A stretch of DNA of 60,130 bases. It comes from a virus (lineage: Duplodnaviria; Caudoviricetes). Both the position numbers and the translations under genes were made by a program. The notes beneath the pieces were generated by a model, which saw only the letters and a program-made list of their open reading frames with translations, ran no database searches and was not told the DNA's origin. Positions 6,441 to 37,279 of this stretch are shown here, piece by piece. The DNA is taken from the IMG/VR virus record IMGVR_UViG_3300025108_000048, positions 1-60,130 of that record. One strand, 5' to 3'. Numbering within the stretch: the first letter of the stretch is position 1; each line of letters begins with the position of its first letter.

Positions 6441-6476
6441 TTTACAATCATTTTAGTATTGAATATATTTATTAGT

Positions 6477-6929: not shown

Positions 6930-6930
6930 G

Positions 6931-8763: not shown

Positions 8764-8823
8764 AATTCTTTTTCTGTATTATTATTAATTAAGGGAAACT
8801 ATGTTCCAATCTATTTATATGAT

Positions 8824-16301: not shown

Positions 16302-16326
16302 AATAATATTTATTAATTAAAAGGAT

Positions 16327-17241
16327 ATGGCAGTAGGTAGTTATGGAACAGTAAGACCGGCAGATGTGTCACCATCAGACGTAGAAATTTTCTATCATTA
16401 CGTCTCGGGGAGAACGTCGTCCGCACCTGTACAATTTAAAAAATTAAATTCAGAAGATATATTAACACCTATCTATCACAATTCAGATACGACGGATGCA
16501 CCGAACGCACCTGATACGGAAATTTTAGGTGGACTATACAATCTAAAGTTAGATACGGCGGACTTCGATGAATTAGGTATATATACCTTACATCTTAGAC
16601 CTAAACAAATAAGAACCTCTATAACCGACTGTGGGGTGTTAGCGGCACTACCATCTGTAAGAGGAATTATAATAGATTTAAGTAATGTGCCGTCAACAGA
16701 TAGAAATAAATTCAACCCTCAAGGGTTAGTTGGATACAGAATAGAGTATTTGAATAACGATGGAAGTAAAACCCCTAACTTTTACAGGGTTGTTACATCT
16801 TCATTCTACTGTACTCCAATTACGTCAAACCTGACAAGTACAACTCAAAAGGCAATAAGATATCAATATACAGATCAAGCGACTAATTTGTTGTTTTTAA
16901 CGGTAACTCCGTCATCTGCACCATCTAATAGACCGAATACAGTTCCTTTTATTGGGGAACCGTCTCAAAACATAGTTTTATCAAATACATTTTTTAACCC
17001 AACAACGATTGAGGTTGATATGGTAGAACACGATGAGACAACATTGGCTTACGCATTCTACGGTAACCAAACAAAATCTATTTCTGATGGAATATACACG
17101 ATATACACTGCGGAAAACAATATCTACAAACAATTTAACTTGTTTGAGGTGAGAGATGAGTTCAACGAAACACTTTACGAGGTTAGAGAAGAGAGGGACG
17201 AAATCGATGAAACTAAAAACTTTGATGATATCACTGAATAA
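16327..17241 (+). CDS. putative structural protein
   Basis: 304 aa, preceded by the TATTTAT motif, stop overlaps the next start (TAATG). Confidence 0.6.
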
Positions 17242-20200
17242 TGGCGAAAAGAAAAGTTCCAAGTCAATCTGCGAGTGGAGGGGATACCTTTAATGACAAC
17301 TTAGTTGGTAATCAAATTACCAATGGGTCAAGTCAGTTGACTGCCACAAACTTTTCAATAGATAAGACAATACCACAAAGAGATACTAAGAGTTTTACAT
17401 CCGTACCTTTTTCTGATTTTTTAACAATTGAAGATCTTAAAGAAGAAACTAATGCGCCTAAAACAAAATCAGATAGATCCGTAAAGAAAGAAGGTAAAGT
17501 AAAGTTCAGAGAGAACAAAGACGCGGGTTCTAAGACACTATTTGGATCTTTAAGTAAAAGACTATCATCTTCAGTTAATAATATAGTAGAACAGTTCCCT
17601 GCGGGTTTCTTTATTGACAAAGATACTCCTATATCATTTTCACAATACACTGCGGAGAATATTACTTACGATCTTAAGGCAAGAACAACAACTTTTAAGT
17701 TTGAAAGATCAAAAATATTCAATCCATTAGACGTAGTACTTGAAAAACCTTTAAGTAATGTAAGTCCTGATGTTAATAACGAATTTAAAAACTTCTTTGA
17801 GAATTATTCTAAGTACTCCCTTATTATTGATGAGGTTGAGTATGAGATATTAACATATACAAAGGCGGGTAACGACGGACTTATTACGTTAAAAGTTAAA
17901 GGAAAACCTTTTATTGGTGACACATACAGTGAGAGTTTCTTAATTAGACCAATTAATCAGACAGTAGAAGAGTTTTTCGGAAGTTTAGATGAGTTAGAAA
18001 GTTTAATATTAGATAGAGAATCTACACCTAAGTACACCGCTGAGTTTAAACTACCAAAAGATTCCTTAGATGGTTCTAAAACAGAAACTACAACAACTAA
18101 AATTAGTTGGCCATTATTCAAAGATGGTTGGAACATAAAGATCGGTGGTACTGAATATATTGGATACTTAGAAAGTTTAAAATCTATAGGTGATGAAGTC
18201 GATCAATACAAGTCTAACTTAATATCAAGATTTTTAACAACAGCATCACTAAATGAATTCGATACTGAAGATCAAAGAATGTCTTCGATGTTTCAGATTT
18301 ATGGTAGTGGTTTTGATTCTGTAAAGAAATTCATAGACAACATAGCATACATGAGAAATGTAAGTTATGATAAGATTAATAACATTCCCGATGTATTATT
18401 AAAGAATCTCTCAAACACACTTGGATTAGATTCTGTAAACCTATTTGATGAGAAATCATTGGACGATACACTTTATTCAAGAGTGGATAGTCAGTTCGAA
18501 GGTAATAACCTTGGAATGAATATGGTTGAAGCGGAGGCGGAATTCTATAGAAGATTAGTCATTAATCTTGTAAGAATATATAAATCTAAAGGTACAAGAA
18601 AATCTATTGAGTTCTTTTTAAGGTTTATTGGTGCACCTGAACCATTAATAAAAATTAACGAACATGTATACAAATATGACGATGTTAAGAAGGTTTCTTC
18701 AGACATCGATGATGACATTTATGATTTAACTCAATTAGAAAAAACGTTCACTGTTGGTCAGATAGACCTTGAGGACAAAACACATTCTTTCATATACCAA
18801 GGAATAACAACAACGGGTACCACAACATACCAAGTAGATGAATACCCAATAGTATTAACGGGTGTAACAAAATACGGGGATGTACAAAAAATTGTAAGTG
18901 AGAATAATGACGTATTCTTTCAAAAAGGTTCAGGTTGGTATGAGATATCCTTACAACATAGGTCATCGACCGAATTAGATGTTGAGAATTCCAACTTGCT
19001 GTCTAATCCTAAGATTATAAAAACAAAAAATAAGGACTACACTTATGGTGAGGACTATTTTGATTTATATAGGCAATTTTACGGATTAGATTACGGACAC
19101 GAATTACACAATACGATTGATAACGAAAAGACAGAGTTACTGTCGGATGTAGACTCAAAAACTTTAAATAGAAAAAACATACAAATCTACTTGTCATCTG
19201 CACAAGGTATTGATTATGATGTGTATAAAAAGTCTAGAGATTTAGAGGTAAGTTTTGGATTAAAAACTCTCCAACCACAAACAGGTTTTACGTTTGCGGA
19301 ATACATGGATAATGTATTAAACGAACAAATACGTAATTCACATGTCGTTAAGTATCAAAAATCATACATTCAATTAGAGGATGTGTATTGGGGGTATTTA
19401 GAAAAGGTAGGGACACCATATAGTTTCCCAACGGTTAATGAATTCATAAACAGAATGAGTCCACATTGGGTGGAGATTGTGGAACAGTTTGTTCCAGCAA
19501 CAACCCTATGGACGGGTGGTAATATTTTAGAAAATAGTCGTATTGGGAGATCTAAACACGATTATTTAAAACCATGTACCATTGAACAAGTTGAAGATAA
19601 TCTATTTCCTAAATTAGGTTTTGAACATTCTATAGAGGAAGATTTAGAAGTTTACTTTTTAGGGGATAAAGACTTATTTAGAGGATTAACGGTAGTAAGT
19701 GGGGTAACTTATGTATTAAAGATAGTTTTAATGGGTGAGGTGTATACCGCATCTTCTCCGATTACACTTACTGGTGGTCAACTATTCGATCCATTCGTAT
19801 CTACTTCTGATTGTACAACAATTAATGAGGTTGTTTTTGATAGTGGGGAGACTTTTGACGGATCAAAACATTTACCCTTATTATGTGATTTTAAGTGTAA
19901 TTTAAATCCTGACAGAGATGTATTAGATCCATTATGGATTAATGCGGTCGATAGTATATTTTCTCAAATAAATGAAAAATACTTCACCAAAACAGCGTAC
20001 ACAGGTTATGACACAATTAGTAACCATGCCGGTGGTGAAGGATATGAAAGAATAACGGGTAACACAGAAACAAGTGATGAAAATCAAAACATAGAGGGTG
20101 GATTTAATTCTGAACTATCAACCAACGGAGAAAACTACGGATATGAAAATGTCCCTATAGTTTCTCATGAGATTTTTACTGATAGTGATGGTATTGAAAA

Positions 20201-23200
20201 AATAAGAATTACACCATTCACGTATGATACACAATTGTATGTCTCAAACCCTGGTGATCCATACGGTGACGCATACATACCCGCGGATTTAGATTGTTTA
20301 GATTTAAGTACGTTCGATTTTTATTGGGAGTCAACATATCTAACGGGAACTACGGAATGTGACCCTAAGGTTAAAGTTTACGGACCAAATACTTTCTATA
20401 CATTACCTGAAGATGAGGACGATTGTATCCTAATGGAGGATGTCTATTTCGAAGTGTCGGGTGTTACATTTGGTAATGAAGATACTATAGATGATGGAGA
20501 TCCATGTACTGATTGTCCACCATATAATACATCTTGGCCGTTAAACATATTCATAGATTGTGTTGGTGGGTATAATGAATCAATTAGTGGACATACGTAC
20601 ACAGTTGATCATATTTCAGGATGTACGTTTGTTGTTAATAATGTTAGAGAAAATGATGTCATTGACATCTCAATAACAGATGCGGCAAATTGCGATCAAA
20701 AAATAAGAATAGAGGGATTACAACAAAAGTTTGAATGGGACCCTGTAGATGGTGACGATGTTACTACATCAAGAAGTCATTATTTAGAATACTCATTTGA
20801 TACTTACGCTGATGGGGATAACCCTGATAGTAGTGAACCTCTTAATAGTCAATCTGGTATTACTTTCTGTGATAATTATTCAGGATATACTATACAACCT
20901 ATTGTACAATATAGACCTACGTTTGATTATGGTCTGAGACAAAACACTAAAGTTATAAAAGTAAATAATGGTGTTATACTTGACGAAAATACAACTTGGG
21001 ATCAAATACAAACCTATTTAGATGATAATACTTTAGAAAAAATAAACATTGAAAATGTTGTAATAGGTGATCAACTACTTTCAGGGGTATATAAAGATTG
21101 TCCTTTCTCATCTCAAGATTATAACGATGCGGTTATTAGTGGTTATTCGTTCTCTTATGATTATAAGGTCGTAACAGTTGAAAATAAAGACTGTTTAGGT
21201 TCTACTAAAATTAACAAGATAAATGAAAGATTTAGTTTTTTACCTAATACTAGATTATGGGTAATGACTAAAACAATGGAAGATGGAAGTCAGGGGGATA
21301 ATTGGAGATTTATTGAAAAGTATCCTGAAGAATTATATCCAAGACCTGATGATCCTACAGATCCTTGTTGTACTTATCAAGTTGGTTACTACGAAAGGGG
21401 AGACTTTATTTTTAACGAACACGGTTTTCCTATTGAAGTACTCAAGGTCGATTTAGACTACTGCGCAAGAGATTTGTTCTACCATTTAAATGTCACACAG
21501 AAAACAGATGCTAACGTTAGTTGTACTGAAGTAATATTATTTAATGGTGATTCTGAGGACTGTATATTAGTTGGACATGACGAACAGAAGTTCGAAAACA
21601 TGGACATGAAAATGCAACAATACTTCCAAGACAAGTTAGATTGTTCTGACATGCCGGACATAGATGACATTGAGAGGGATTTAACAGGATTAGATGATTG
21701 TAACACATTAAATGCGTTTAAAATTAAACACTTTGACACTGGGGAGATAAGATATACCGAAATAAACGATGACTTTGATATAGGAGATACGGTAAATATT
21801 GAATTTATTTACAGTGGTTCTTACAACGAAGAAATTAACTCAATTCAGAAACTATCACCGGGACAAAATTGTTGGGTTGTAATCTCTAAAGTTTATGCTA
21901 ATGTCATTGAATATTTGGCATCGGGCCCATGTGATGATGTTAGACGACCAGGTCCAAGCGCTACCCCAACTAACACACCAACACCAACACCTACAAGTAC
22001 TCCAACGAGCACACCTACAAGTACCCCAACTCCAACACCAACGAGCACACCTACGAGTACACCAACATCAACACCAACGAGTACACCAACAAGTACTCCT
22101 ACCCCAACACCTACAAGTACACCAACGAGCACTCCGACTAGCACTCCGACTAGCACTCCGACTAGTACTCCTACATCAACACCTACAAGTACTCCTACAC
22201 CCACACCTTCACCTACACCAAATTGTGACTTTGACATAGATATTGATGTCGTAACCCCTACACCAACACCTACAGAAAGTAGTACTCCTACACCCACACC
22301 TACACCAAATTGTGATTTCGATATTGATGTTGATGTTGTTACCCCTACTCCTACACCAACACCTTCACCCACACCAAATTGTGACTTTGATGTGGACATT
22401 GATTTAATAACTCCAACCCCAACACCCACTCCAAGTCCAACACCAGATTGTGACTTTGATATAGATATTGATGTAGTAACTCCAACACCTACAGAAAGTA
22501 GTACTCCTACACCAACGCCAACTCCAACTCCGAACTGTGATTTCGATATTGATGTAGACTTAATAACTCCTACACCTACCCCAAGCCCAACAGGTAGCCC
22601 AACCCCAACTCCAACTATTGATTGTGACTTTGACATAGATATTGATGTCGTAACCCCAACACCTACTCCAAGCCCAACAGGTAGCCCAACCCCTACACCT
22701 ACACCAGATTGTGATTTTGATATAGACGTTGATTTAGTTACTCCTACACCTAGCCCAACAAGTAGTCCAACACCTTCACCAACACCTACGATAGACTGTG
22801 ATTTCGATATTGATGTGGATTTAGTTACACCTACACCAACTCCTACACCAACAAGTAGTCCATCACCTACCCCAACACCAGATTGTGATTTTGATATAGA
22901 CGTTGATTTAGTTACTCCTACCCCAACAAGTACTAATATACCACCCACATCAACACCAACCCCTACACCTACACCAGATTGTGATTTCGATATTGATGTA
23001 GATTTAATAACTCCAACGCCTACCCCTACGGAAAGTAGTATTCCATCACCAACCCCTACACCTACACCAGATTGTGACTTTGATATAGACGTTGATGTCG
23101 TAACCCCTACACCAACACCAACAAGTAGTCCATCACCCACCCCAACAAACACACCAACTCCAACTCCGAACTGTGATTTCGATATTGATGTGGATTTAGT

Positions 23201-25046
23201 TACTCCTACACCTTCACCAACAAGTAGTCCTACACCAAGTCCTACCAACACTCCTACACCTTCACCAACGCCGAATTGTGATTTTGATATAGATGTGGAT
23301 TTGGTAACTCCAACACCAACACCTAGCCCAACAAGTAGTTCAACTCCAACACCTACAGAAAGTAGTACTCCTACACCCACCCCAACACCTAATTGTGATT
23401 TTGACATAGATGTGGATTTGGTTACTCCTACCCCAACACCTTCACCAAGCCCAACTAATACACCTACTAATACCCCAACTCCAAGTCCAACACCTAATTG
23501 TGATTTCGATATTGATGTTGATGTAGTTACACCAACCCCTACCCCAAGTCCAACGAGTACTCCGACTAACACGCCAACACCAAGTCCAACGAGTACTCCG
23601 ACTAATACGCCTACACCAAGTCCAACCCCTAACTGTGATTTTGACATAGATGTGGATTTGGTAACTCCAACACCAACAAGTACTCCAACTAACACACCAA
23701 CACCAACAAGTACTAACACACCTACACCAAGTCCTACTAACACACCTACACCTTCACCAACGCCGAATTGTGACTTTGATATTGATGTGGATGTCGTAAC
23801 ACCTACTCCTACACCTAGCCCAACAAGTACTAACACACCTACACCAAGTCCTACTAATACGCCTACACCAAGTCCAACCCCTAACTGTGATTTCGATATT
23901 GATATTGACGTGGTAACCCCTACACCAACACCTACTAACACACCAACACCAAGTCCAACTAATACCCCAACACCTTCACCAACAAGTAGTCCTACACCAA
24001 GTCCAACTAATACACCCACACCTACCCCTACACCGAATTGTGATTTCGATATAGACATTGATGTGGTAACCCCAACACCTACACCAAGTCCGAGTCCAAC
24101 CAACACACCAACACCTAGCCCAACTAACACACCTACACCTACACCTACACCGAATTGTGATTTTGATATTGATGTTGATGTAGTAACACCTACACCAACC
24201 CCGACAACTAGTCCTACACCTACACCAACAAGTAGCCCTACCCCTACACCAACAAGTAGTCCAACACCAAGCCCAACTAATACACCTACACCAACACCTA
24301 CACCTAACTGTGATTTCGACGTAGACGTTGATGTAGTTACACCAACTCCTACACCAAGCCCAACAAGTACTCCTACACCTACACCAAGTCCGAGTCCAAC
24401 TAACACACCAACGCCAAGTCCGACAAGTACCCCAACCAACACACCTACACCAAGCCCTACTAGTACTCCAACACCAACACCTACACCTAACTGTGATTTC
24501 GACGTAGACGTTGATGTGGTAACACCTACACCAACACCTACTCCAAGCCCAACACCTTCACCAACTCCATCACCCACACCAATAGATTGTCCTGCACCAT
24601 GTACGACAACAATAAACTCAGATCTATTCCAAACTTGGAACACTAACTTGGTTGGGTCCAACTTTAAAGAATTGGGTGGATATTGTAATGAAGTGAGAAA
24701 TAAGAGTGGTAATGTAGTATCAACGAATAGTGAAGAATGGACTTACGATACAAACACATGTATTGTTTACGTTTACTATGAAGGTAGTACTATGAGAAGG
24801 AGTTGTATTGGGGAGCATACATCACCCGTAGGGACTGAAGTAAGTTCTTTTGACCATACAGATGGTACCCTTACACCAACAGGTTCAAATAGGTTATTTG
24901 ATACTGATATAAGATTTATAGATAATGATAACAATGCAATAATAATAGTAACCGAGTGGGATTCCACATTAACATCATTATTACATGTTCACATTTTATG
25001 TGACTGTAGTTTTGAGGGGGATGTTACCGTTCATAATTTGAAATAA
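17241..25046 (+). CDS. giant baseplate-associated protein with a Pro/Thr-linked repeat array
   Basis: 2601 aa; [19 protein letters not shown] resembles the P2 gpI / T4 gp7-type baseplate motif; Cys-rich middle; 22 CDFDxDxD motifs near the C-terminus. Confidence 0.75.
21950..24580 (+). repeat. coding repeat array: 22 x [ND]CDFD[IV]D[IV]D[VL][VI] separated by (PT/PS/NT)n linkers
   Basis: Counted directly in the translation; units are synonymously diverged at the DNA level. Confidence 0.95.
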
Positions 25047-25064
25047 AAAGTATATATTTTAATA

Positions 25065-28000
25065 ATGGCAAGAATATTCGACATAAAAATAACATCAGGG
25101 ACTTCACACAGTCTCTATACGATATACTACGATCAAGTCGATGCTGCCAATATCGCAACAAGAGTGAGTACCTCATTACCTGCAACAGGTGTGACATATA
25201 ATGATTTAATAAGTGGTTCGGGAGTCACAGTTAGTGTCCCTAACAGTGCAACTTCAATACTACTATATAATAATTCATGTGTGATTGATGATGAAATTAT
25301 TTTACCAACCCCAACTCCATCACCTAGCCCAACAAGTACACCAACACCAACACCAACAAGTAGTCCTACACCAAGTCCTACACCAAGTCCAAGTCCAACA
25401 GAGACACCTACCCCAACACCATCACCGAGCCCAACAAGTACTCCAACTCCTAGTCCAACGACTAGTCCAACACCAACACCTACACCAAGTCCAACTCCAA
25501 ATTGTGATTTTGATATGGACATCAATGTGGTTACACCCACACCAACACCCACACCAAGCCCAACAAGTAGTCCAACACCTACACCTACAAGTACTCCGAC
25601 TCCAACACCAAGTCCGAGTCCAAGCCCAACAGAGACACCTACACCAACACCGAGTCCGACAACAAGTCCTACTCCAACTCCAACTAGTACACCAACACCT
25701 ACTCCAAGTCCAACACCAAATTGTGACTTTGACGTTGATGTCACCCTTAATACAAGACCCTCCATAATAGTACCTAATTTTTCTCAAACAGAAAACACGG
25801 CAACAGGAACTACAATAGGTAACTTAGTTGCAAATGATGATGAGGGAGGAACGTTTACGTGGGTATTTGAAGATACCGCAAGTTATCCTGATAATAATTC
25901 TTTCTCATTGACTAGTGGTGGGGTATTATCTAACGCGGAGGTTTTCAACCATGAGGTAAAAAGTTTATATACTTTATATGTTAAGGTCACCGATAACGGT
26001 GGATTAACAAATACAAGAGAATTTACGGTAGATATAGTCGATGTTAATGAAACACCATACGGTTTAACCTTAAGTAATAATTCGCAAAGAGAAAACACAC
26101 CAACGGGGACAACAATTGGTATTTTTTCGGGGTTAGATGTTGACAGTAACGAAACATTTACATACGCACTAACGGGTAGCGGTAATAATAATTCGGCGTT
26201 CGCCTTATCAAGTTCGGGTGTACTCAAAAATGCAATAGTTTTTAATTATGAGGTTAAAAACTCTTATAGTATTGAAGTGACGGTTACGGATAGTGGTAAT
26301 AACACTTATACGGATACATTTACAATTTCAGTACTTGACGTTAATGAATCACCAACAAATTTATCCTTATCAAGTAATAGTATTGCGGAAAATCAATCTA
26401 CAGGAACAACAATAGGTACTTTCAGTAGTACGGATGTTGATTCGGGAGATAGTCATTCTTATGAACTTGTTAGTGGTTTAGGAGATACTAATAATGGTTC
26501 ATTTACATTAACAAGTGGTGGTGTTCTAAAAAGTAAAGAAGTTTATAACTATGAAGGTAAGAACAGTTATTCTATAAGAGTAAAAACTACTGATTCGGGG
26601 GGATTAACCTACATAGGTATATTTACGATTTTGATTACAGATCTTAACGAAACCCCTTCTAACATAACACCATCAACAGTGTCGTTTCAAGAAAATCAAT
26701 CGACAGGAACAACAGTGACTACATTCACCGCCACCGATGTTGATGCGGGCGATACACATACTTTTGAATTAGTAAGTGGTGTTGGAGATACCAACAACGA
26801 TTCGTTTAGTTTGAATAGTAATGGTACTCTGACATCTAACGAGGTGTTTAACTACGAAGTTAAAAACTCGTATACAATAAGAGTCAAAGCAACAGATTCA
26901 GGTGATTTAACATACGAAAGATCAGTAACAATTAATATCACCAACGCAAACGAAGTACCCACAGATATAACTTTATTAGATAATAATATCCCTGAAAATA
27001 GTTCTACAGGTACTACGGTTGGTCAATTATCAACTACAGATCCTGATGCATCAAATACATTTACATATACATTAGTAAGTGGTGTAGGAGACACTAATAA
27101 CAGTTCATTTAAGATAAGTGGTAATAAGATTCAAAGTAGTGAAGTATTCAACTATGAAGTTAAGAACACTTATTCAGTTAGAGTAAGGTCAACAGATCAA
27201 GGAGGGTTATATAGAGAAGAATCGTTTACCATTAATGTAACTAATGTTAATGAAACTCCAACAAACATATCATTATCTAATTCATCTATTGATGAGAATG
27301 TGGCAACAGGGACCACTGTGGGGACACTATCAACTACAGACCCTGACGCAGGAAATACATTCACATATACATTAGTAAGTGGTGCGGGTGACACTAATAA
27401 CGGTTCGTTCTATATAGACGGAACAACCTTAAAAAGTAATCAAGTTTTTGATTATGAAACCAAGAATTCATACACAATAAGAGTAAGAACAACAGACCAA
27501 GGTGGATTATGGTATGAAAAGAAAATAACGATATCAATTACAAATATCAGTGTTTCAGGAACTGCGGATGTAACCAATATTACATGTAGCAATCTAAAGA
27601 ATGGTAGTATTGAGGTTACCTCAACTACAGGAGGTGATTCACCATATACATATTCAATTAACGGTACTAATTACCAAACATCAACGACATTTTCAAATCT
27701 CGACTCAGGAACCTACACAATTTATATAAAAGACGACAATGGTGAAATAGGTACTATAAGTAAAACAGTTACAAAACCATCCGCAATAACAATATCCGAC
27801 ACCCATACAGACCCAACATGTGATGGTGATTCTGATGGTACAATTACTTTCACCGTTGGTGGAGGAACAGGAACCAAAACATATACGTTAAATGGTGTGG
27901 CGATTACTAATCTTTCTCAAACAGGGTTGGATGAAGGCAACTACACTTTAGTTGTAACCGATGAAAATGGATGTACAAATTCAAGAACAGTGGTACTAAC

Positions 28001-31000
28001 TAAGTCAGCGATAACCTTATCGGTATCCATAACAAATACAATATGTAATGGATTACAATCGGGTGAAATTAGGATAACTAATATAGGTGGTGGTAATGGT
28101 GGTCCGTACAAGATAAAATTTGATGACGGAGAGTTTGAAGATGATAATGGGGCTAATCGTACAATAAGTAATTTATATGCGGGTACATACACAATAACAA
28201 TACAAGATGGGAGTTTCTGTGAGAGAGAATTCTCGGTAACAATAACAGAACCATCACAAGTATCATTTACATCAACACATACTGATCCAACATGTTGGGA
28301 CGGTTCGGATGGTGAAATAATTATAACGGCAACGGGAGGTAGTGCACCATATGAATACAAACTAAATAATCAGTGGTATCCTTCAGGGAACTTCACAGGG
28401 TTAACAACTGGAAATTATACATTAGACGTTAGAGATGTTAATTTATGTCAAACAACAGGATCAAGTAGTTTAACGTTATTAAAATCAGCACCTATAGTAA
28501 CGTGGTCATTTACAAATGTCACATGTAATGGGGCTGGTGATGGTACTATATCGGTGGCAAACCCATCTGGTGGAAACGGTGGAACATATCAGGTAAAACT
28601 TAATAAATTAGGTACCTATGTAGACCTACCAAACAATACTATTCAAGACTATACGTCATTAGCACCTGGTACACATACCATATTCATTAAAGATGGTGAG
28701 GGTTGTATAAAAACATACACACAAACCATAACACAAAATGCAGTGGTAGGTATATCTGTTTCAAACACAATGCCGACATGTAGATTTGATAGTGACGGTC
28801 AAATTGTTGTTACAGGTAGTGGTGGGACTGGGTCTTACACTTATAGTAAAGACGGTACTAATTATCAAACATCCAACACATTTTCAAACCTTTCAAAAGG
28901 AAGTTATACGTTATACGTTAAAGATACTAATGGTTGTGTGGTGAATACATCAACCACATTAGATAAAGCACAAGTAACGGCATCAATTTATTCTAATGCA
29001 CCTAACTGTCATAACGGTAGTGATGGTGATATTACATTGGCAGCAATTACGGGTGGAAACGGTGGACCATATCAGTTTAAATTTTCAAGTGGTAATTGGA
29101 CTAATTTTACTACACCAGTAACGTTTACAGGTAAATCGGGAGCAACACCTTATTATGTGTACGTTAGGGACAAAGTTGAGTGTGAAAATGAATATCAAAT
29201 AGTATTAAATAACCCACAAAACTTAGTAATAACCACATCGGTGACACATCCGACGTGTCGTGGAAATAGTGATGGCGAAATTGTAATCACATCTACTGGT
29301 GGTACAGGAACTAAATTATATTCAATAAATGGTGTTAATTATTTTACGTCAGGTACGTTCACAGGACAGACTGTAGGGACAAGAACAGCATATGTGAAAG
29401 ATAGTAATAACTGTATTACGACTAAGAGTGTTACATTAACAAAAACTGATCCTTCATTTAATGCGTCACTTGAACATGTTTCATGTAATGGTGGTACAGG
29501 AACAATAACAGTATCAAGTCCAACAGGTGGAAACGGTGGACCATACCAAGTTAAATTAGATAGTCAATCGTACATAAACTTTAATACAGGCACACCACCT
29601 GAATATGAATTCACAGACGCGTCTGTGGGTCCACATACTGTAACAATAAAAGATAAGGACGGATGTACTAAAGGTTATACATATATTATTACACAACCAC
29701 CGGTGGTCAATGTAACTACAAAAAGTGTTACTCACCCATCGTGTCGTAATTCTAATGATGGTTCGATAACATTTGAAGCAAGTGGAGGAACAGGATCACT
29801 AACATATACAATGAATGGGGTATCAACAACAGATCTCACATTCACAGGTTTAACCATAGGTGGGTACTCGTTTAGAGCGACAGACCAAAATGGTTGTTAT
29901 GACCAAGTTACGGTAATTCTTCAAAAAAGTGATGTTACCGCAACGGTATCATCATCAAACCCTACGTGTTATGGTGGTACAGGATCAATAACAGTGTCTA
30001 ACCCAATTGGTGGAAACGGTGGAACATATAGTTCTAAAATAGGTTCGGGAAGTTATTCTACAACATTCCCTAAAACATACAGTAATTTGAGTGGTGGTTC
30101 ACATACTATCACTGTTAGAGACGGTGATGGATGTACAAGAACATACACAAAAACAATAACAGTACCCACACAAGTTAGTTTTACCACAACATTAACACAC
30201 CCTTCATGTAGTGGAGATAATGATGGTGAAATAGTAATTAATGCAAGTGGGGGTAGTGGATCGTACACATATTCTTTAAATAACGGATTTAATTACCAAT
30301 CGAGTAATACTTTTTCTACTTTAAGTTCCGCTATCTATTTGATAAGAGTCAAAGATAGTGCTAACTGTGTTCGATCAGGAAGTGCACAACTAAATAAGAC
30401 CGCTCCAAACGCGACATTTACAACAAGTAGTGTAAGTTGTCATGGTGGTAGTGACGGTGAGATAACAGTGTCGAATCCAACAGGAGGTAACGGAGCAACA
30501 TATAGTTCTAAAATAGGGTCAGGAAGTTACACAACGACTTTCCCTAAAACATATACAGGTTTATCGGAAGGAAAAAGTACAATCACAATTAAAGATAAAG
30601 ACGGTTGTGAACAATCTTATCAGGTAACCATAACTGAACCTTTAGATGATACTGCAACAATAACATCATTTACCACAGGTGCTAATGGTGACATTACTGT
30701 TACATCTGCGGGTGGGACGTGGAATAAAACATATAGATTATATGAGGACACAACGTCTCCCTATACTAATAGTGGGGGTGTTTTAGTCGCAACTATCACA
30801 GGTGTGACAGCGGCAAATCATTCACAAACATTCAGTAGTTTACCTGAAGGGTATTATTATGTTGTAGTTACCGATGCAAACGGTTGTGTCTCAAGTACAT
30901 CAGAACAAAGTACATTTGCCGATGGTGATGACTGTAATTGTATAGAGGTTGGTGTTATTTCGAGTAAATTAACAAGCGGTGGTAATGATTTATACTACAT

Positions 31001-31244
31001 TAATAATGATTGTGAAAATGGGATGACTTCTGTAAACTTAAACAATTATTTAGCTGAGATTGGTGAAGACGAGGAAAGTAATATTTTTAAATTCTGTAGT
31101 CAGTCACCGTATAGTCATAGTTTTAAATATGGTTTAGCTGGTGAGACTTTCGATGGACCTCAAGGTGGGGGAATAACAGTAACACCTTTTGATGATCCAT
31201 GTACTAGTAACTCGGATTGTTCAAAAACCATTAAACCATTTTAA
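25065..31244 (+). CDS. adhesin-like fibre protein: N-terminal domain, PT linkers with 2 CDFD motifs, 6 cadherin-like repeats, about 13-14 SprB-like repeats
   Basis: ENxxTGTT[IV]G...D.D...FNYE.K..Y.I.V..TD.GGL...DVNE.P cadherin pattern; xxC.G..DG.I....GG...Y.Y....L..G.Y...V.D..GC SprB pattern. Confidence 0.85.
25750..27550 (+). repeat. six tandem cadherin-like domains
   Basis: Units of about 100 aa starting ENTATG, ENTPTG, ENQSTG, ENQSTG, ENSSTG, ENVATG. Confidence 0.85.
27570..30890 (+). repeat. tandem SprB-like repeats
   Basis: Units of about 80 aa with two Cys each, e.g. [24 protein letters not shown]. Confidence 0.8.
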
Positions 31245-31338
31245 CCTAATTGGTATATAATAAATAATAAATTAATAACAAAACGAATAAATCGTAAAAA
31301 CGATATATTTATAATAAACAAAACAAAATTAAAATAAC

Positions 31339-31944
31339 ATGGCAGGAGCAACAGGATCGACGTATCAAGTAACATTCACCCTATCACCAGCATTTACTGG
31401 AACGACAGAGGCTGATAGTTTTACAATAATTGGAAAACACTGTAATGGTAATCCTTCAGACACTACTATAGCGTCAGGGGTTTCTAAAGCAGAATTAACC
31501 ACAGGAATGACATACACAATTGCACAAACAATTTCAGGTGGAACTATAACATCAACAGGAGATTGTACTAACTCTGTCAATTGGACAGGTTTAGCGTGTG
31601 AAGGTGACCCAAGTCCAACACCTACACCAACATCTGAAGGAGAACCTGGAGGTGGTGGAGGATCACTATTCCAAGTGAGTAGATGTAACGATGATTCCAC
31701 ATGGTTAATTGCTGACGATATAAGTTGTATTGAAGGTAATCCGAGTACACCACCTAACCCAAGTATTTATCAAGTAGGTGAATATATACAGATGACGACA
31801 GGAACTTCTTGTTCAAGTCCACAAACTTCATATTGTGCGTTAATTACGGCGGTTGATGTAAGTGGTACAAGAAATGCGGTACTAATACAACACGCTCTTC
31901 TTAACAAAGATAAAGGTTGTACTAACACTGAATGTATTGAATAA
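31339..31944 (+). CDS. small Cys-rich virion-associated protein with PT linker
   Basis: N-terminal domain (IASGVSKAELTTG...TSTGDCTNS), SPTPTP linker, Cys-rich C-terminal domain. Confidence 0.7.
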   Translation: MAGATGSTYQVTFTLSPAFTGTTEADSFTIIGKHCNGNPSDTTIASGVSKAELTTGMTYTIAQTISGGTITSTGDCTNSVNWTGLACEGDPSPTPTPTSEGEPGGGGGSLFQVSRCNDDSTWLIADDISCIEGNPSTPPNPSIYQVGEYIQMTTGTSCSSPQTSYCALITAVDVSGTRNAVLIQHALLNKDKGCTNTECIE

Positions 31945-31966
31945 TACATTTTAATTAATATATTAA

Positions 31967-31997
31967 AAAAAAACCCGTCTTTATGATGGGTTTTTTT
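31967..31997 (+). terminator. rho-independent terminator (possibly bidirectional)
   Basis: A-run, CCCGTC, TTTAT loop, GATGGG, T7. Confidence 0.8.
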
Positions 31998-32033
31998 ATT
32001 TAAAGTAATCTACTTATTAATGTATTTATATGT

Positions 32034-33134
32034 ATGGGATTAATTGTTAGAGTATTTGATATTGTTTCACCTAATGACTTTGATTTAAGTATTGGGTTGT
32101 CACCGTATGGGCCGTTCACAAAATTAGACGGACCTGGACCTGATAATTCTTGGCCAAACTCTACGGATAGAGACTATAGAACGGAACCAATTTATATTGG
32201 AGACAATGAACCCGAAGTGATTAATGGTGTACCACCATCATCAGAAGTAATATTTTATGATTTAGAGTTTGATACTGAATTTTGGTTGAAAATGGAGGAT
32301 AAGGTAAATGTTATAGATATATGTGGAGATAATCAAACACCAAGGTACATTGTAGAAAACATATACATACATGATAGTAAGACATTTGAATGTTACGATA
32401 AGATAAACTTTAGTGTGTCTTATGAATGTGTATTACCACCAACCCCAACACCCGAACCGACACCAGGAACAACCCCAACCCCAACTCCATCACCAACAGG
32501 TGTAGTTATAGACGACAAGACTGAAATTAATATATACTTTGATAATTCAGGTTCTATGGGTAGTACTGAAGCCCCACTAAATACTATGGCCACAACCATT
32601 CTTAAAAACTGTTTACTACCGTTTTATAACAACGACTCTGCCTTATATGATAGTAGGGTAAAAGTTTTAACTATGGGTCAACTTAATTTAAGTGAAAGAA
32701 GTTACGGTTGTATGGCAAGAACTGGTACAACAATTAATATTACTAAAGTCATAAACTTATCATTTCAAGATGAAGGACAATCAGTTTATCACGGTGGTAA
32801 TGGGTGGACTAATGCACAAACGAGAACGAATGCCTTTAATGCCGATATAACATTATTAAGAAATAACATTGATAATAACCCATCAGATTATATAGTTGGG
32901 GAGATTTTCCAAGTCCAAACCAATACTACTGGACAGTGGTTGTCCTTTAGAAATTTATTGGAATCGGTTGATGGTGGTTTAGGTCAATATACTGGTGTTT
33001 ATGGATTATCCGATAAACCTGAAATACATAATACCTATGGTGTTACACCAGGGAGTACTCCACAATATTATATGGGACTTATAATCACAGCAATTAATAA
33101 TTTAGGTTATAGTATACCTAACTGTACAGAATAA
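32034..33134 (+). CDS. PT-linked protein with C-terminal vWA-like domain
   Basis: INIYFDNSGSM (DxSxS MIDAS pattern) directly after the PT linker. Confidence 0.65.
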   Translation: MGLIVRVFDIVSPNDFDLSIGLSPYGPFTKLDGPGPDNSWPNSTDRDYRTEPIYIGDNEPEVINGVPPSSEVIFYDLEFDTEFWLKMEDKVNVIDICGDNQTPRYIVENIYIHDSKTFECYDKINFSVSYECVLPPTPTPEPTPGTTPTPTPSPTGVVIDDKTEINIYFDNSGSMGSTEAPLNTMATTILKNCLLPFYNNDSALYDSRVKVLTMGQLNLSERSYGCMARTGTTINITKVINLSFQDEGQSVYHGGNGWTNAQTRTNAFNADITLLRNNIDNNPSDYIVGEIFQVQTNTTGQWLSFRNLLESVDGGLGQYTGVYGLSDKPEIHNTYGVTPGSTPQYYMGLIITAINNLGYSIPNCTE

Positions 33135-33141
33135 AGATAAT

Positions 33142-34122
33142 ATGGGGAGAATAGTAAGACTAAATATTTCGTTAGATAACAGTCATTCATTAGATGACTT
33201 TCCCGTTGATTTATATTCGGGTTTAACAAGTGGGGATACAACTAATTTAGTATATGCAAATATAGTTAGTACGGATATACCACTTGATCTAATGTTTGAA
33301 GATAGTGATTTAAATGTTAGTAATGACCCTAATAATCCTTTTGCACCACACTGTTATATGAGAATATCATCTGACGGATGTTATGATGAAATAATAAAAT
33401 TAGAGGTACCAAAAGTAGATTGTGAAATGTGTGTTGATTTCCAAGAAATTATACCAGAACCAACACCCACTTCAATACCACCAACACCTACTTCAATACC
33501 ACCAACACCTACTTCAATACCACCAACACCTACGGAAGGACCAACACCTACCCCAACACCGACATTACCACCTGGACCAAGTCCTACACCAACAACTACG
33601 AGTACACCAACCCCTACACCAACAAGTAGTCCTACACCAAGTCCTACACCAACAAGTACTGACGGACCAACAACATGTAATGAGTACTCATTATATATGA
33701 CAGGACAAGGTGAAACGTCCTCACAGTGGGAATGGACTGAATGTGGAGGTTCGGTTACAACATGGACAAATGTGGGTGCTAACTATAGGGTTGTATGTTC
33801 AGAAACAATACCGACATTAAATTACGGTGATGGGTTTAGTTTACTTAACGGGGATTGTGGTAATTATACGGTAAGTAGATGTACTGATGGACAACAATTT
33901 ACTGTTGCCAAAAATAAGAACTGTAACACAGGTACACCACCAGCATATAGTGTTGGAGATATTATCCAATTCAAAGAAATGAGCGTTACTAATGGTCAGT
34001 GTTTTGGTGCGTCCTACTGCGGTACTATTACCGCCACGGACTCAAATACACCACATGATGCGTTAGTAAGTAGGGCCGCAACAGTTGATGGTTGTGACGA
34101 TGTAATACATTGTGAGAATTAA
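33142..34122 (+). CDS. PT-linked Cys-rich putative virion protein
   Basis: N-terminal domain, PT linker with 3 x 21-nt repeat, Cys-rich modules; VSRC...Y.VG..IQ...SYC..ITA.D is shared with the 31339 protein. Confidence 0.7.
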   Translation: MGRIVRLNISLDNSHSLDDFPVDLYSGLTSGDTTNLVYANIVSTDIPLDLMFEDSDLNVSNDPNNPFAPHCYMRISSDGCYDEIIKLEVPKVDCEMCVDFQEIIPEPTPTSIPPTPTSIPPTPTSIPPTPTEGPTPTPTPTLPPGPSPTPTTTSTPTPTPTSSPTPSPTPTSTDGPTTCNEYSLYMTGQGETSSQWEWTECGGSVTTWTNVGANYRVVCSETIPTLNYGDGFSLLNGDCGNYTVSRCTDGQQFTVAKNKNCNTGTPPAYSVGDIIQFKEMSVTNGQCFGASYCGTITATDSNTPHDALVSRAATVDGCDDVIHCEN

Positions 34123-34175
34123 AAATTTTAATTTAAAATAAAGTATTTATATAATAAGAATAAAAAAATAGTAGA

Positions 34176-35726
34176 ATGGCAAGACAGTTTACAGTAACAT
34201 TGACATCAGGAACCGATTCAGGTCCTTACAACATATATTATGATTCGGTATCATCAGGTACGTTAGCCACTTTATGTGGAACATCTAATTTAGCGGAGAA
34301 CCTAACATTATCTCAAGTACAATCGGGAGTATGTGTTGAAGTTCCAAATGATGCGGACCGTATTATATTTTATAATACCAACCCTGACATTGCAAAAGAC
34401 TGTGAAACTAATCAGGAAGTTCATGAATTAACGAGTGAGCCAAGTCCTTCACCAACAACTACGAGTACACCAACCCCTACACCTACAGAAAGTAGTACAC
34501 CAACACCAACACCTACACCAAGTTCAACAGAAGATATTGCATGTCAATGTTTTGAGTTTATTAACACAACTCAAAATAATATTTCATATATATATACCGA
34601 TTGTAACGGTACAAGTGTAGAGGCGGTCTCTGATAAAGAACCATGGACATTCTACGTCTGTGCTCAAAGTATAGACAGTGTAACAAGTAATAAATTAACT
34701 TATAGTGTTTATGGCCCATGTGCTGAAGGAGTTTGTGTTAATACTCCATCACCAACACCAACTAACACACCAACATCAACACCTACGAGTACTCCTACAT
34801 CAACACCAACTCCAACACCTACAGCAACGGATATACAAGGAGTTCAATCGAGAGATCGAAAGTTCCAGAATTGTGGTACAACACCTGGATCTCCGGATAG
34901 TGCTGAAGTGGAAACTCAAGCAGCACCTGGTGACGGAGAATCGACTATTCCAATTTTTATATACCTAACGATAGATGAATATGGTAGTACACCAGGGTTA
35001 GGTGATAAAGTCCGTGTTAATTTCGGTACGAGTGATCAATATTGTTATGAATATGTTGGTATTGAAACAGGTGAGGAAAACACATCATTAGTGGTTGAAT
35101 TAGATGATTGTAATTGTGACACCGCTCAAGGTGTATGTAAATTCTTTGAAGTTGGTTCAGAAGTAGATCAAAGTAGATATGGTTTACGTTGGGTCCGTTC
35201 AAATGAGGAAACACCCACGACGGCTAAATTTAATAGTATGACCTCCACACCAATGGGACAGGAAGTCGGTAGTTCTGTAGCCGTCGGGGTATGTACCGCC
35301 ATTGGAACTTCAGTAAGTATATGGGATTCTAATGATGATTCATTAGTTTCGAATTTACCAGGAGTCAGTACTCTAGCTCAAAAGAATTCAAGTTGTGATG
35401 AGACTCCACTTGGAAGATGTCAATACAATGTCCCTGATGAACCTACTCAAACGAATAGAACAGTTACGGGTTGTACTTCAGGTAATATATATGTCATTAA
35501 TCATACTGAAACGTGTGACGCCGGTACTATACAAGCGTCTACAGATGAATTAGAATTAGGTGATGTAATATGGATTACCGTAGGTGATTGTGGTGAGGCT
35601 GTTGATGAATGTGCAACTGTGGGACAAGTTACCAATGATGAAATAACCGCGATTAGAAGAGGTCAAGAAACATTTAATGGGTGTTCCAATGATGAGGGCA
35701 ACGCCACAGGGTGTTACATGCCTTAA
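34176..35726 (+). CDS. PT-linked Cys-rich putative virion protein
   Basis: N-terminal domain homologous to that of the 25065 protein; CQCFE module; ends in GCYMP. Confidence 0.75.
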   Translation: MARQFTVTLTSGTDSGPYNIYYDSVSSGTLATLCGTSNLAENLTLSQVQSGVCVEVPNDADRIIFYNTNPDIAKDCETNQEVHELTSEPSPSPTTTSTPTPTPTESSTPTPTPTPSSTEDIACQCFEFINTTQNNISYIYTDCNGTSVEAVSDKEPWTFYVCAQSIDSVTSNKLTYSVYGPCAEGVCVNTPSPTPTNTPTSTPTSTPTSTPTPTPTATDIQGVQSRDRKFQNCGTTPGSPDSAEVETQAAPGDGESTIPIFIYLTIDEYGSTPGLGDKVRVNFGTSDQYCYEYVGIETGEENTSLVVELDDCNCDTAQGVCKFFEVGSEVDQSRYGLRWVRSNEETPTTAKFNSMTSTPMGQEVGSSVAVGVCTAIGTSVSIWDSNDDSLVSNLPGVSTLAQKNSSCDETPLGRCQYNVPDEPTQTNRTVTGCTSGNIYVINHTETCDAGTIQASTDELELGDVIWITVGDCGEAVDECATVGQVTNDEITAIRRGQETFNGCSNDEGNATGCYMP

Positions 35727-35800
35727 TTAAATTTAACCTATAAGTTGTGGTTTATTAATTTGTTTCCATTGTATTTATATACATAGACTAAATATATATA

Positions 35801-37279
35801 ATGGGTAATCTTGTAACAGTTAAAAATAATTATGATAATGGAGTGTGTAGTGGATTTACCATATACACAGGTACCACTTACAATGGACACCCATTTACAA
35901 TACCACCTTCCGCAAATAGTATAGGTTTTCACACATTACCACATACCTTTGATATTGGATATTATAGTGGTCCATTATATGTCTTTTTAGAGCATTGTGA
36001 CAATCATATTTCACCCCCACCAAACGAAGACCCAAAAAAACAAGGTGGATTCCAAGTAGTACTAATCGATGTTGATTGTGAAGTATGTCCACCAAATTCG
36101 GATTCAATTGACTGTACAATGATTGTTAGTTTTGTGGAAAATAAATCCACTGACTGTAACTTTACGGTAACTTTTGACGAGATACTTACATCACCATCAC
36201 CAACACCGACATCAACAAGTACACCAACACCAACACCGACATCAACAAGTACACCAACACCAACACCAACATCAACAAGTACACCAACACCAACACCAAC
36301 ATCAACAAGTACACCAACACCAACACCAAGTTCAACAGAAGATATTGCATGTCAATGTTTTGAGATTAATAGTAACCGTCAGGGTTATTTCAATTACTCA
36401 TATTTTGATTGTAATGGTGTGAGGGTAGATGCAACGTCTGAGACTCCACCAATGCAGGAAATAACATTTTACGTGTGTGCACAAAGTATAATATCAGTTG
36501 CTGATAAAGTGACTTATAGTGTTTATGGCCCATGTGCTGAAGGAGTTTGTGTTAATACTCCATCACCAACACCTACACAAACACCTACACCTACTCCAAC
36601 GAGTACCCCAACAAGTACACCAACATCAACACCTACGAGTACTCCTACGAGTACACCAACATCAACACCAACAAACACACCAACATCAACACCTACGAGT
36701 ACTCCTACACCAACACCAACTAATACTCCAACCCCAACTCCAACATCAACGTCACTTATACAGTTAGAATGTGTAATTGCCACCTTTACTGCTAGTGGAG
36801 GTAATTTAACGGTTACTTATGATCCGTGTGGTGGAGGTAAGAGACAAAATCTGTTTATATTTGATGGTCAGACAGGAGAGACCGTTTGTGCACAAAACAA
36901 CTCATGGACATATGATTATCCTGATTATTTAGGTAGTGTAAGTATTGACCCATGTCCTCCCGATCAAACCCCAAGTCCATCAGGTGTAGATGATGAACCA
37001 AGTAATGGTAATAGGGCGGTTATAGGTTGTGATTCAAATACTGAATATATAATTAATGAGAACGAAACATGTTTAAATGGTCAGATGGCAATCACCGCAA
37101 ACCAATTGCAACCGGGTGAAATAATATGGATCAGTGCTGAAGAGTGTGGTGATGTTATTGAATGTGCAACTGTAGGGGTACCTAAGGTAGGTCCAATAAC
37201 TGCAGTTAGGTATAATGAGAATACGTTTGAGGATTGTAGTCAAGAAGAAAACTTTCAGGGTGGGTGTTACATGCCTTAA
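35801..37279 (+). CDS. PT-linked Cys-rich putative virion protein, partial paralog of 34176
   Basis: Shares the CQCFE...[10 protein letters not shown] module and the GCYMP C-terminal domain with 34176. Confidence 0.75.
36201..36320 (+). repeat. 4 x 30-nt near-perfect tandem repeat ([10 protein letters not shown])
   Basis: caacacc[g/a]acatcaacaagtacaccaacac repeated four times. Confidence 0.9.

Follow-up and report, generated by a model that had tools for sequence, protein, structure and literature searches.

What does an array of 22 Cys-bearing strands, each only 11 residues long and set between Pro/Thr-rich linkers, do in a 2601-residue phage protein? The protein is encoded at 17241-25046 of the window, the whole 60,130-nucleotide stretch of the virus record that was analysed here, and six adhesin-type genes lie directly downstream (Table 1). 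The initial annotation read the strands as donor strands that dock the N-terminal domains of these downstream "clients" in the manner of a scaffoldin. Here, we examine the sequence, conservation, distribution and spacing of the strands and weigh that reading against others.

Anatomy of the locus

The gp25-like and gp6-like genes match baseplate wedge subunits in PHROG (E 7.6e-13 and 2.4e-20), and in a tblastn search the wedge region is 26% identical to the baseplate wedge protein of Flavobacterium phage vB_FspM_immuto (E 2e-43). These two genes put the 17241-37279 region in a baseplate/tail-fibre module. In immuto, a cultured Flavobacterium myovirus, the slot of the giant gene is occupied by genes annotated as tail fiber and tail spike. 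A megablast search of 6300-17241 against 50,697 phage records returned no match. The clade consists of large uncultured myoviruses, the hosts of which are probably Flavobacteriia.

The 2601-residue protein had been called baseplate-type, a term that derives solely from its position downstream of the two wedge genes. We found 162 homologues at E<=1e-3, all metagenomic. The 120 listed span 49-100% of residues 1-1600, most of them more than 90%, and among these residues 1-1460 are conserved and the C-termini are variable. The gene thus has the layout of a receptor-binding protein: it adjoins baseplate genes and combines a constant N-terminus with a variable C-terminus. The N-terminal part is without a Pfam, PHROG or PDB sequence match: residues 1-1600 find nothing below E 0.3 among PDB sequences, residues 1-1620 have no tblastn match in the 50,697 phage records, and no Pfam family is found at E<=0.01 for the whole protein or at E<=5 for residues 1-1500. 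A 922-residue minus-strand open reading frame at 21893-24661 is a side effect of low sequence complexity in the coding region.

The array does not end the protein, as had been described, since a folded domain of ~154 residues comes after it. AF2, run with a nine-sequence alignment, predicts this domain to be all-beta (pLDDT 84, pTM 0.79; low confidence in the last ~12 residues), and it closes with a motif-like strand, CSFEGDVTV. Foldseek with this model found no PDB structure at E<=1e-3, and the ESM Atlas gave no usable match.

Table 1. Coordinates of the baseplate wedge genes, the giant protein and the downstream adhesin-type genes in the window
Feature	Position	Strand	Description or basis
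gp25-like baseplate wedge gene	6300-6929	+	Pfam GPW_gp25, E 5.9e-9
gp6-like baseplate wedge gene	6931-8763	+	
Giant protein, N-terminal ~1500 aa, presumed anchor	17241-21740	+	Homologue conservation
Giant protein, first Pro/Thr/Ser linker, ~90 aa, ahead of first strand	21951-22220	+	Translation
Giant protein, array	22221-24521	+	22 Cys-bearing 11-aa strands and 21 Pro/Thr linkers of 12-50 aa
Giant protein, folded C-terminal domain, aa 2448-2601, then stop codon	24582-25046	+	AF2
2059-aa adhesin	25065-31244	+	N-domain type A (aa 1-80), PT linkers, 6 cadherin and 12 SprB, Cys-rich C-terminal module
Motifs in the 2059-aa adhesin	25500-25532 and 25719-25751	+	Each preceded by a PT linker
201-aa protein	31339-31944	+	N-domain weakly type A-like, short PT/Gly linker, Cys-rich payload
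366-aa protein	32034-33134	+	133-aa N-domain, PT linker, payload with DxSGS string
326-aa protein	33142-34122	+	N-domain closing with motif-like strand, long PT linker, Cys-rich payload
516-aa protein	34176-35726	+	N-domain type A, two PT linkers, Cys-rich modules
492-aa protein	35801-37279	+	N-domain, two degenerate motifs, PT linkers, Cys-rich modules; PHROG 15511, E 1e-21

The six downstream genes are built, as first described, of an N-terminal domain, a PT linker and a payload. Their products make up one family of modular, adhesin-type proteins in which N-domains are conserved and payloads vary, and in relatives the genes keep their synteny with the giant gene. The N-domain encoded from 34176 matches that encoded from 25065 (type A) with E 1.8e-16. 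The six N-domains all have a net negative charge (-4 to -16), type A ends in a motif-like strand of its own with an invariant Cys, and a Cys-bearing strand stands ahead of every PT linker in these proteins. The cadherin and SprB payload of the 2059-residue adhesin is borne out by Pfam, with both families scoring above the gathering cut-off (SprB, E 2.3e-65, 12 stretches; Cadherin, E 1.1e-53, 6 stretches), the only other rows being sub-threshold and Ig-like; in a tblastn search, its SprB region was 30% identical to sequence in a single uncultured phage record of 642 kb. A von Willebrand factor A domain claimed for the 366-residue protein could not be upheld: there is no Pfam match at E<=5, the best PDB sequence match (E 0.31) is unrelated, and what is left is the DxSGS string, recognized by eye. 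Searched against Pfam at E<=5, the five smaller proteins contain no dockerin or other family, with only a few sub-threshold, low-complexity rows. The giant protein's C-terminal domain was considered as a partner of N-domain A and rejected: it is missing from the array-bearing giants in L115 and L142, which have type A neighbours.

Conservation, distribution and spacing of the strand

A regular expression for [ND]CDFD[IV]D[IV]D[VL][VI] recovers all 22 copies at residues 1661-2427 of the giant protein, and a search with a degenerate DNA pattern locates these 22 sites again, all on the plus strand, while the reversed control pattern gives none. The linkers are variable and consist of Pro, Thr and Ser with some Asn, Glu, Gly and Ile. 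Two further 11-residue copies begin at residues 146 and 219 of the 2059-residue adhesin, and both hold their position in 6/6 aligned orthologues. Looser versions are present, as initially reported, in the proteins encoded from 33142 and 35801 and at the giant's own C-terminus.

The 22 copies are encoded by 21 distinct DNA versions in which the Cys, the Phe and four Asp are invariant. Pairwise codon comparison gives 845 synonymous versus 435 nonsynonymous differences, the latter mostly conservative, and by our own arithmetic from these pS is ~0.61 and pN ~0.07. The strand is under purifying selection at the protein level. Across the family we tallied 335 motifs in 40 proteins, with Cys present by definition; Phe is found at +2 in 314 and Val or Ile at +4 in 322, and the acidic positions can be Thr, Val, Asn or Phe in relatives. 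Because the acidic positions are replaceable while Phe and Val/Ile are kept, the conserved feature is the hydrophobic face plus the Cys. The number of Cys per array is even in 20 of the 40 proteins and odd in the other 20, which rules out an even-number rule and makes obligate intrachain disulfide pairs unlikely. The net charge of the strand is -4 to -5. The element is absent from Pfam and PHROGs, and literature text searches found no mention of the motif or of PT-rich phage fibres.

The array is present, patchily, in 47 of 121 family members, which are spread over at least 12 distinct clades in the tree of the N-terminal part. Its copy number behaves like a length dial, with 22, 19, 18, 17, 13, 12 and 11 copies in close relatives. 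In every case read, it is flanked by an N-terminal domain on one side and a C-terminal payload on the other. At least five kinds of N-domain are represented; besides the giant N-terminus and type A, there are the 35801 type and the domains found in L031, L289/L280 and L155. The same slot is filled by plain PT linkers lacking Cys in two relatives (L104, ~750 residues, and L275) and by PT-linked folded domains in two others (L114 and P0011). Payloads switch between cis and trans among relatives: 7 of the 120 homologues listed carry client payloads at the C-terminal end of the giant protein itself (E<1e-5), with the payload of the 366-residue protein fused to the giant in 4 of the 120, that of the 201-residue protein in P0009 and cadherin plus SprB in P0075.

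The linkers lengthen from N- to C-terminus in 34/34 arrays with at least five scorable linkers, with rho>=0.7 in 27; these arrays represent at least seven clades plus one non-giant protein, are related by descent and do not give independent counts. The lengthening often proceeds in steps of one sub-repeat, and often by equal pairs stepping up, as in 20, 20, 28, 28, 38, 38 (P0039) and 10, 20, 20, 30, 30, 44 (P0020). The idea that distal units are simply older was rejected, as distal blocks are recently duplicated (270-nt period, 78% matches) and proximal ones are too.

A proposed in-cis tether and the competing readings

Self-association of the strands had been offered initially as an alternative to docking; it is now part of the reading that we favour, at a probability of about 40%, in which the strand and Pro/Thr array is a reusable in-cis tether of receptor-binding proteins and the strands serve as self-association nodes. 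From the anatomy, conservation, modular distribution and graded spacing of the array we infer its mechanism, namely oligomeric state, strand pairing, any disulfide or cation, and mechanical role. The tether would run from an anchor domain at the N-terminus to a payload at the far end, holding adhesin domains off the baseplate. In the giant protein the anchor would be the ~1500-residue domain on the baseplate side, and in the downstream proteins it would be their small N-domains; the C-terminal beta domain, the cadherin/SprB repeats or the Cys-rich modules would be the payload. Reach would come from the Pro/Thr stretches, the 888-residue region measuring ~275 nm if fully extended. One face of the 11-residue strand would present Cys, Phe and Ile/Val, through which equivalent strands of copies of the same protein could pair in register within an oligomeric fibre, and disulfides or divalent cations might stabilise the pairing. 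With nodes dense by the anchor and sparse by the tip, such a tether would have a stiff base and a floppy end.

The lone and double motifs fixed in orthologues of the 2059-residue adhesin fit pairing between chains better than stacking within one. Counting against pairing, the acidic strands should repel one another unless cations intervene, the equal-length linker pairs are unexplained by in-register pairing, and the minimum length of ~10-12 residues seen for most linkers would also fit one chain folding back on itself. A three-copy complex prediction of residues 1655-1750, which hold four strands, scored 0.00 against a mark of 0.42 and, run with no controls, gives no answer.

Folding back is the core of an alternative that we consider unlikely, in which successive strands of one chain stack as a beta sheet and the linkers are loops, so that a compactly stored tether could release hidden length one loop at a time under load. 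Most linkers have at least the 10-12 residues that are about enough to return along a 10-residue strand, and the stepped equal pairs are expected if loops alternate on the two edges of a growing sheet. Moreover, CDFDxDIDID is also one strand of a 47-residue folded-looking repeat in an unrelated MAG protein (L224), for which Pfam gives sub-threshold rows only. However, linkers of 0, 6 and 8 residues exist, the conserved single and double motifs cannot stack alone, a sheet with four Asp per strand on one face needs counter-ions, and no model supports the arrangement.

Less likely again is the absence of any assembly role, with the strands punctuating a low-complexity spacer for charge or solubility, as modification marks or as inherited duplication. 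Relatives manage with Cys-free PT linkers, and the Cys-bearing strand before each PT linker suggests a duplicated domain end, a "last strand plus linker". Strands acting as marks might designate sites for, e.g., a glycosyltransferase modifying neighbouring Thr, and nucleotide-sugar enzymes are encoded at 42244-43429. Against this, strong purifying selection acts on the Cys, the Phe and the hydrophobic face across deep divergence, and spacing ordered in every array scored is hard to obtain without structural constraint.

A further reading, which we hold to be more doubtful still, takes the N-to-C lengthening of the linkers as the sign of a defined higher-order structure, not a loose string. Either a net would widen radially round the baseplate, cross-linked at the Cys strands of neighbouring fibres, or hidden length would be released as loops open in order under load, for example while the phage holds a gliding host.

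Donor-strand docking, in which each strand, possibly disulfide-locked, would bind a client N-domain to give a branched scaffoldin-like display, draws on co-occurrence. Type A proteins lie downstream of 12/12 array-bearing giants with at least 1.5 kb of downstream sequence and are absent from 4 array-less loci and records, a pattern confounded by descent and by the motifs within type A proteins themselves. The strand is also similar to the one that closes beta-sandwich domains, among them the domains here whose own terminal strands precede PT linkers, and the AF2 model of residues 1-240 of the 2059-residue adhesin (pLDDT 49, low confidence) shows only four strands and a short helix in its N-domain. 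However, client-type proteins themselves contain arrays: a relative's protein with a 35801-type N-domain (64% identity over 95 residues) carries ~10 motifs, and at least three further N-domain types are found on array-bearing proteins. Both client N-domain families also occur in array-less records, which are fragments. N-domains of the 32034, 33142 and 35801 types lie downstream of array-less giants at 4/4 such loci, and 13/44 type A loci have no motif on the plus strand within 10 kb. Pattern matches number zero in all but one of 8-9 whole client records, the remaining one having a single lone match; for type A, 6/7 records scanned whole have none and 1/7 has one lone match. The scanned records are 11-64% complete, so absence is unproven; the positive control gave the 22 matches in the window. 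The initial annotation had named a failure of arrays and clients to co-occur in other genomes as grounds for refuting docking, and to the extent that fragments permit, this is what the loci show. Given, in addition, the cis payloads, the terminal strand that N-domain A already possesses, the acidity of N-domains and strands alike, and the lack of any cohesin, dockerin or pilin family match, docking is highly improbable.

Relation to known systems and significance

Several known systems share parts of this design. Cellulosomal scaffoldins and modular glycoside hydrolases likewise have long Pro/Thr/Ser spacers joining folded modules that vary in order and number. The docking units of cellulosomes are folded cohesin domains of ~150 residues that bind dockerins, whereas the phage repeat unit is an 11-residue strand and no cohesin or dockerin was detected; we know of no Cys-strand punctuation or graded spacing in cellulosomal linkers. 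CBA120-like and G7C-like phages build branched tailspike complexes with conserved N-terminal anchor domains. They, too, have tandem, syntenic receptor-binding or adhesin genes after the baseplate genes, with a conserved N-domain and a variable C-terminal part, but in place of enzymatic tailspikes the proteins here carry cadherin, SprB and Cys-rich modules, borne on PT tethers of great length. Mucin PTS regions with CysD are similarly an extended Pro/Thr/Ser polymer broken by Cys elements thought to cross-link. CysD is a folded domain of ~110 residues with many Cys in a secreted eukaryotic glycoprotein, while here there is one Cys per 11-residue strand in a phage protein made in the cytoplasm.

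The T4 fibritin foldon and the HxH metal sites of the T4 gp37 needle are very small elements that keep fibre chains in register, as proposed here for the strands; there is no sequence likeness, a trimer is only hypothetical in our case, and flexible PT spacers replace a continuous shaft. In chaperone-usher pilins, an incomplete Ig fold is completed by a donor strand that is likewise short with alternating hydrophobic residues, but the candidate acceptor domains here occur without arrays and have their own terminal strand.

Which cells a phage is able to capture depends on long modular receptor-binding proteins, and to our knowledge almost nothing is known about cell capture by the very large uncultured phages of aquatic Bacteroidota. 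The strand element is widespread in these phages, and its ordered spacing calls for a structural explanation. Were the strands only a spacer with inherited punctuation, they would still provide a useful rule for annotating giant phage proteins, hundreds of which are now called "hypothetical". If they serve as nodes that set register or form cross-links, they would rank with the smallest self-association units that build a fibre and be a possible design element for tunable protein tethers. A net or a hidden-length tether, if true, would be a kind of virion superstructure so far undescribed.

The giant protein and its strands

The giant protein carries 22 copies of the 11-residue strand [ND]CDFD[IV]D[IV]D[VL][VI], the number given in the initial annotation: a regular expression matches 22 times at residues 1661-2427, and a degenerate DNA pattern recovers the same 22 sites, with no hit for a reversed control pattern. 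The Pro/Thr/Ser (PT) linkers between the strands measure 18, 12, 12, 18 ... 40, 50 residues. Residues 1560-2447 (888 aa) comprise 259 Thr, 251 Pro and 97 Asp, have a net charge of -99 with two basic residues, and contain 23 Cys, 22 of them in strands. Contrary to the initial annotation, the protein does not end in this array: a C-terminal domain comes after it. The domain is all-beta in AF2, with a confident fold in one of five models (best pLDDT 84, pTM 0.79; the other four 48-64); the final residues of the protein, CSFEGDVTV..., fall outside that fold. The model has no match in the PDB by Foldseek at E<=1e-3 and no hit in the ESM Atlas. The domain was found in 3 of the 120 homologues listed and in nine related loci, and in some of these a payload of the type found in the downstream 32034 protein (downstream proteins are named by start coordinate) follows in cis. 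Arrays close with a distinct variant, DC[STVI]F[DEG][AG]..[TS]E (the window, P0029, P0044, L115, L109, L033), which stands at the extreme C-terminus of the giant protein in the window and immediately before the 32034-type payload in relatives. The long frame opposite the array is most likely not a gene.

Coordinates of features in the window and in two other loci
Feature	Position	Strand	Size	Remark
Giant ORF	window 17241-25046	+	2601 aa	
Open frame opposite array	window 21893-24661	minus	922 aa	coincides with C-rich coding strand, GC skew -0.47
C-terminal domain of giant protein	window 24582-25043		154 aa	
Region of closing variant	window 25044-25046			
25065 protein	window 25065-31244		2059 aa	next ORF after giant gene
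Cadherin repeats of 25065	window 25750-27700			last strands compared by eye
Five further adhesin-type ORFs	window 31339 to 37279			
Two cytidylyltransferase-like genes	window 42244-43429			
Giant relative with Cys-free linker	L104:10001-17200			
Tandem-repeat protein	L224:1-1569	minus		Candidatus Nanopelagicales MAG contig

The 22 copies are encoded by 21 distinct DNA versions, and DNA repeats in the array region are no more than 69-85% matches. Phe and the Asp residues at positions 3, 5, 7 and 9 are invariant despite changing codons, and the Cys codon is TGT in 22 of 22 copies. Pairwise codon differences number 845 synonymous and 435 nonsynonymous, the latter being N/D, I/V and V/L exchanges; by rough hand arithmetic, taking each unit to have ~6 synonymous and ~27 nonsynonymous sites, pS is ~0.61 versus a pN of ~0.07. 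Judged by these comparisons, the strand is under selection as a peptide. The consensus of 335 motifs in 40 proteins is [ND]-C-[DEN]-F-[DEV]-[VI]-[DT]-[VIA]-[DNF]-[VI]-[AVI]-T, with Phe present in 314 motifs and the acidic positions swapped in entire lineages (e.g. NCEFEVTAFVA, NCEFVIDTVAVI and NCDFGVDTNII). The kept feature is the Cys together with the hydrophobic face; the row of Asp residues is not retained.

Linker spacing and proposed strand pairing

Along the array of the window the linkers grow from 12-18 to 40-50 residues (Spearman rho 0.95). Of the 34 arrays in which five or more linkers could be scored, all 34 have a positive rho and 27 a rho of at least 0.7; in every one the mean linker of the second half is longer. 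These arrays are drawn from seven or more clades of the giant family and also include that of an L289 protein with another N-domain; their linker sequences differ. They share descent and are therefore not 34 independent trials. Lengths advance by a local sub-repeat of 6 or 10 residues, and equal-length pairs are frequent (20,20,28,28,38,38 or 10,20,20,30,30,44). That older units are simply longer is ruled out as the cause of the gradient, because distal blocks have also been recently duplicated (270-nt period).

Our analysis points to a modular in-cis tether, with strands as self-association nodes, as the most likely reading. The anatomy and distribution of the array are directly observed; in the proposed tether, an anchor domain would be followed by an extended Pro/Thr spacer and then by a payload. 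Self-association of the strands, an alternative in the initial annotation, becomes the favoured reading here; we infer the pairing itself from the conserved hydrophobic and Cys face, the purifying selection and the ordered spacing. Nodes crowded near the anchor and thin near the tip may give a stiff base and a compliant end.

The strands of one chain could instead stack on each other like an accordion, a rival that is still alive and that fits both the linker floor of 10-12 residues and the equal-length linker pairs rising in steps. We lean towards pairing between chains, because orthologues of the 25065 protein carry lone and double motifs fixed in position and because Cys counts within arrays show no bias to even numbers (20 even and 20 odd in 40 proteins), neither of which favours stacking within a chain.

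N-domains and payloads of the downstream proteins

The initial annotation had proposed that the strands dock the N-terminal domains of six downstream client proteins in the manner of a scaffoldin. The layout it described is borne out. The 25065 protein runs from an 80-residue N-domain through a PT linker, a motif, a second PT linker and a second motif, thus bearing the two motifs ascribed to it, to cadherin/SprB repeats (six cadherin, 12 SprB) and a Cys-rich end, and the five further ORFs all read N-domain, PT linker, payload. The 25065 and 34176 N-domains form a pair (type A; E 1.8e-16) to which that of 31339 is weakly alike; the other three show faint mutual likeness. All six are net acidic, and the terminal strand of the type A domain itself, before the PT linker, bears an invariant Cys. 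AF2 modelled residues 1-240 of 25065 at low confidence. By eye, the last strands of the 25065 cadherin repeats resemble the array strand and the start of its linker; there are hints that the array unit arose from the last strand of a domain.

Docking itself is made unlikely by arrays that lie within client-type proteins and by payloads carried in cis. A 654-aa protein of L060 combines the 35801 N-domain (64% identity over 95 aa) with about ten strands and Cys-rich payloads, a type A protein of L109 has two strands and a 32034 payload, and other kinds of N-domain occur on array proteins of L031, L155, L289 and L280. Fused to giant proteins we found cadherin+SprB (P0075), the 31339 payload (P0009), the C-terminal module of 25065 (P0053) and the 32034 payload (4 of the 120 homologues listed, plus L033/L089 and L115).

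The co-occurrence of array and clients expected from docking was examined locus by locus. From 20 loci with at least 1.5 kb downstream of the longest ORF we kept 16, dropping L096, L117, L118 and L141, in which the longest ORF was not the homologue or had no match. A type A neighbour accompanies all 12 array-bearing giants; the four giants array-less by eye (L104, L114, L130, L134) have no type A domain, even in their whole records, and all four have other N-domain types beside them. An outward search from type A gave 44 loci, 13 of them missing a plus-strand motif ORF within 10 kb; in several of these a folded payload or a PT linker without Cys follows directly on the N-domain. Scanning both strands of nine whole records, 11-64% complete, with T-P-x-C-[DENK]-F (22 hits in the window as control) gave no hit in eight (type A records L295, L296, L299, L300, L305 and L309, with L104 and L114) and one lone hit in the type A record L307. 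Taken together, the array-free loci, the N-domain's own Cys strand, the acidic charge and the module swapping argue that the N-domains are independent of the array, which would not be their reserved rack. The features testable here do not place the system among cohesin-dockerin or donor-strand systems.

The giant family and its phage setting

At E<=1e-3, 162 homologues match residues 1-1600 of the giant protein. Every one comes from a metagenome or MAG and, where a source name exists, is called 'hypothetical protein' or 'surface protein'; no relative was found among 50,697 deposited phage records. The N-terminal ~1460 residues are conserved and the C-terminal parts highly varied, including F5/8-type C, leucine-rich, DUF285, LamG and cadherin+SprB modules and PT linkers with or without strands. 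If the motif is defined broadly, as a Cys and ensuing alternating hydrophobic residues between P/T/S flanks, at least one is present in 47 of 121 members, which are spread over at least 12 separate clades in a tree of the N-terminal part. Arrays of close relatives hold 22, 19, 18, 17, 13, 12 or 11 copies. The L104 relative has, in the array's slot, ~750 residues of TPT(L/Q/Y)(T/S)I-type linker with zero Cys. A strict DNA pattern run against 2.9 million viral contigs matched 59 stretches, 18 with at least three matches; all array-bearing stretches that were read belong to the same phage group, and single matches look like chance. In L224 the strand is one element within a larger tandem repeat of ~47 residues, whose units open with CDFDLDIDID followed by FPCP and have no Pro/Thr linker; against Pfam this protein gave sub-threshold rows only.

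The window (estimated completeness 19%; IMG/VR record of 60,130 bases; GC ~33% outside the array) has gp25-like and gp6-like baseplate wedge genes upstream of the giant gene and, elsewhere, replication and nucleotide-metabolism genes, a ClpP-type prohead protease and a sigma factor. Among cultured phages, the wedge protein is closest to that of Immutovirus, a genus of Flavobacterium phages (26% identity, E 2e-43); there the matching downstream slot carries genes annotated tail fiber and tail spike. The giant gene shares with phage receptor-binding modules its baseplate-gene neighbourhood, its conserved N-terminus and its varying C-terminus. L169 and L155 lie on one 248-kb contig, which was assigned to the bin of a Flavobacteriaceae MAG and is probably a complete phage genome that ended up in the bin of its host; it has the giant gene with at least 13 strands, the cadherin/SprB neighbour and, elsewhere (L155), a 632-aa protein with a different N-domain and three strands. 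The host is likely a member of the Flavobacteriia, because this contig carries both the giant gene and its neighbour. Large aquatic phages of one lineage, with Flavobacteriia as predicted hosts, have been described in 2025 (PMC12619734).

Of the two cytidylyltransferase-like genes of the window, the second also encodes, as a fusion, a mannose-6-phosphate isomerase/cupin part. Such nucleotide-sugar enzymes could help to glycosylate DNA or the virion; any connection with the Thr-rich linkers is speculative.

The array is like known systems in separate respects: in use, like modular carbohydrate-active enzymes and scaffoldins, in which PT linkers occur; in setting, like phage receptor-binding sets, which have conserved N-terminal anchors; and in pattern, like mucins, whose PTS regions are interrupted by Cys domains. 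No publication on the motif or on PT-rich phage fibres came up in literature text searches. We rate the array as a spacer module built on a micro-element that is under selection and undescribed, and spaced by a rule that awaits explanation.
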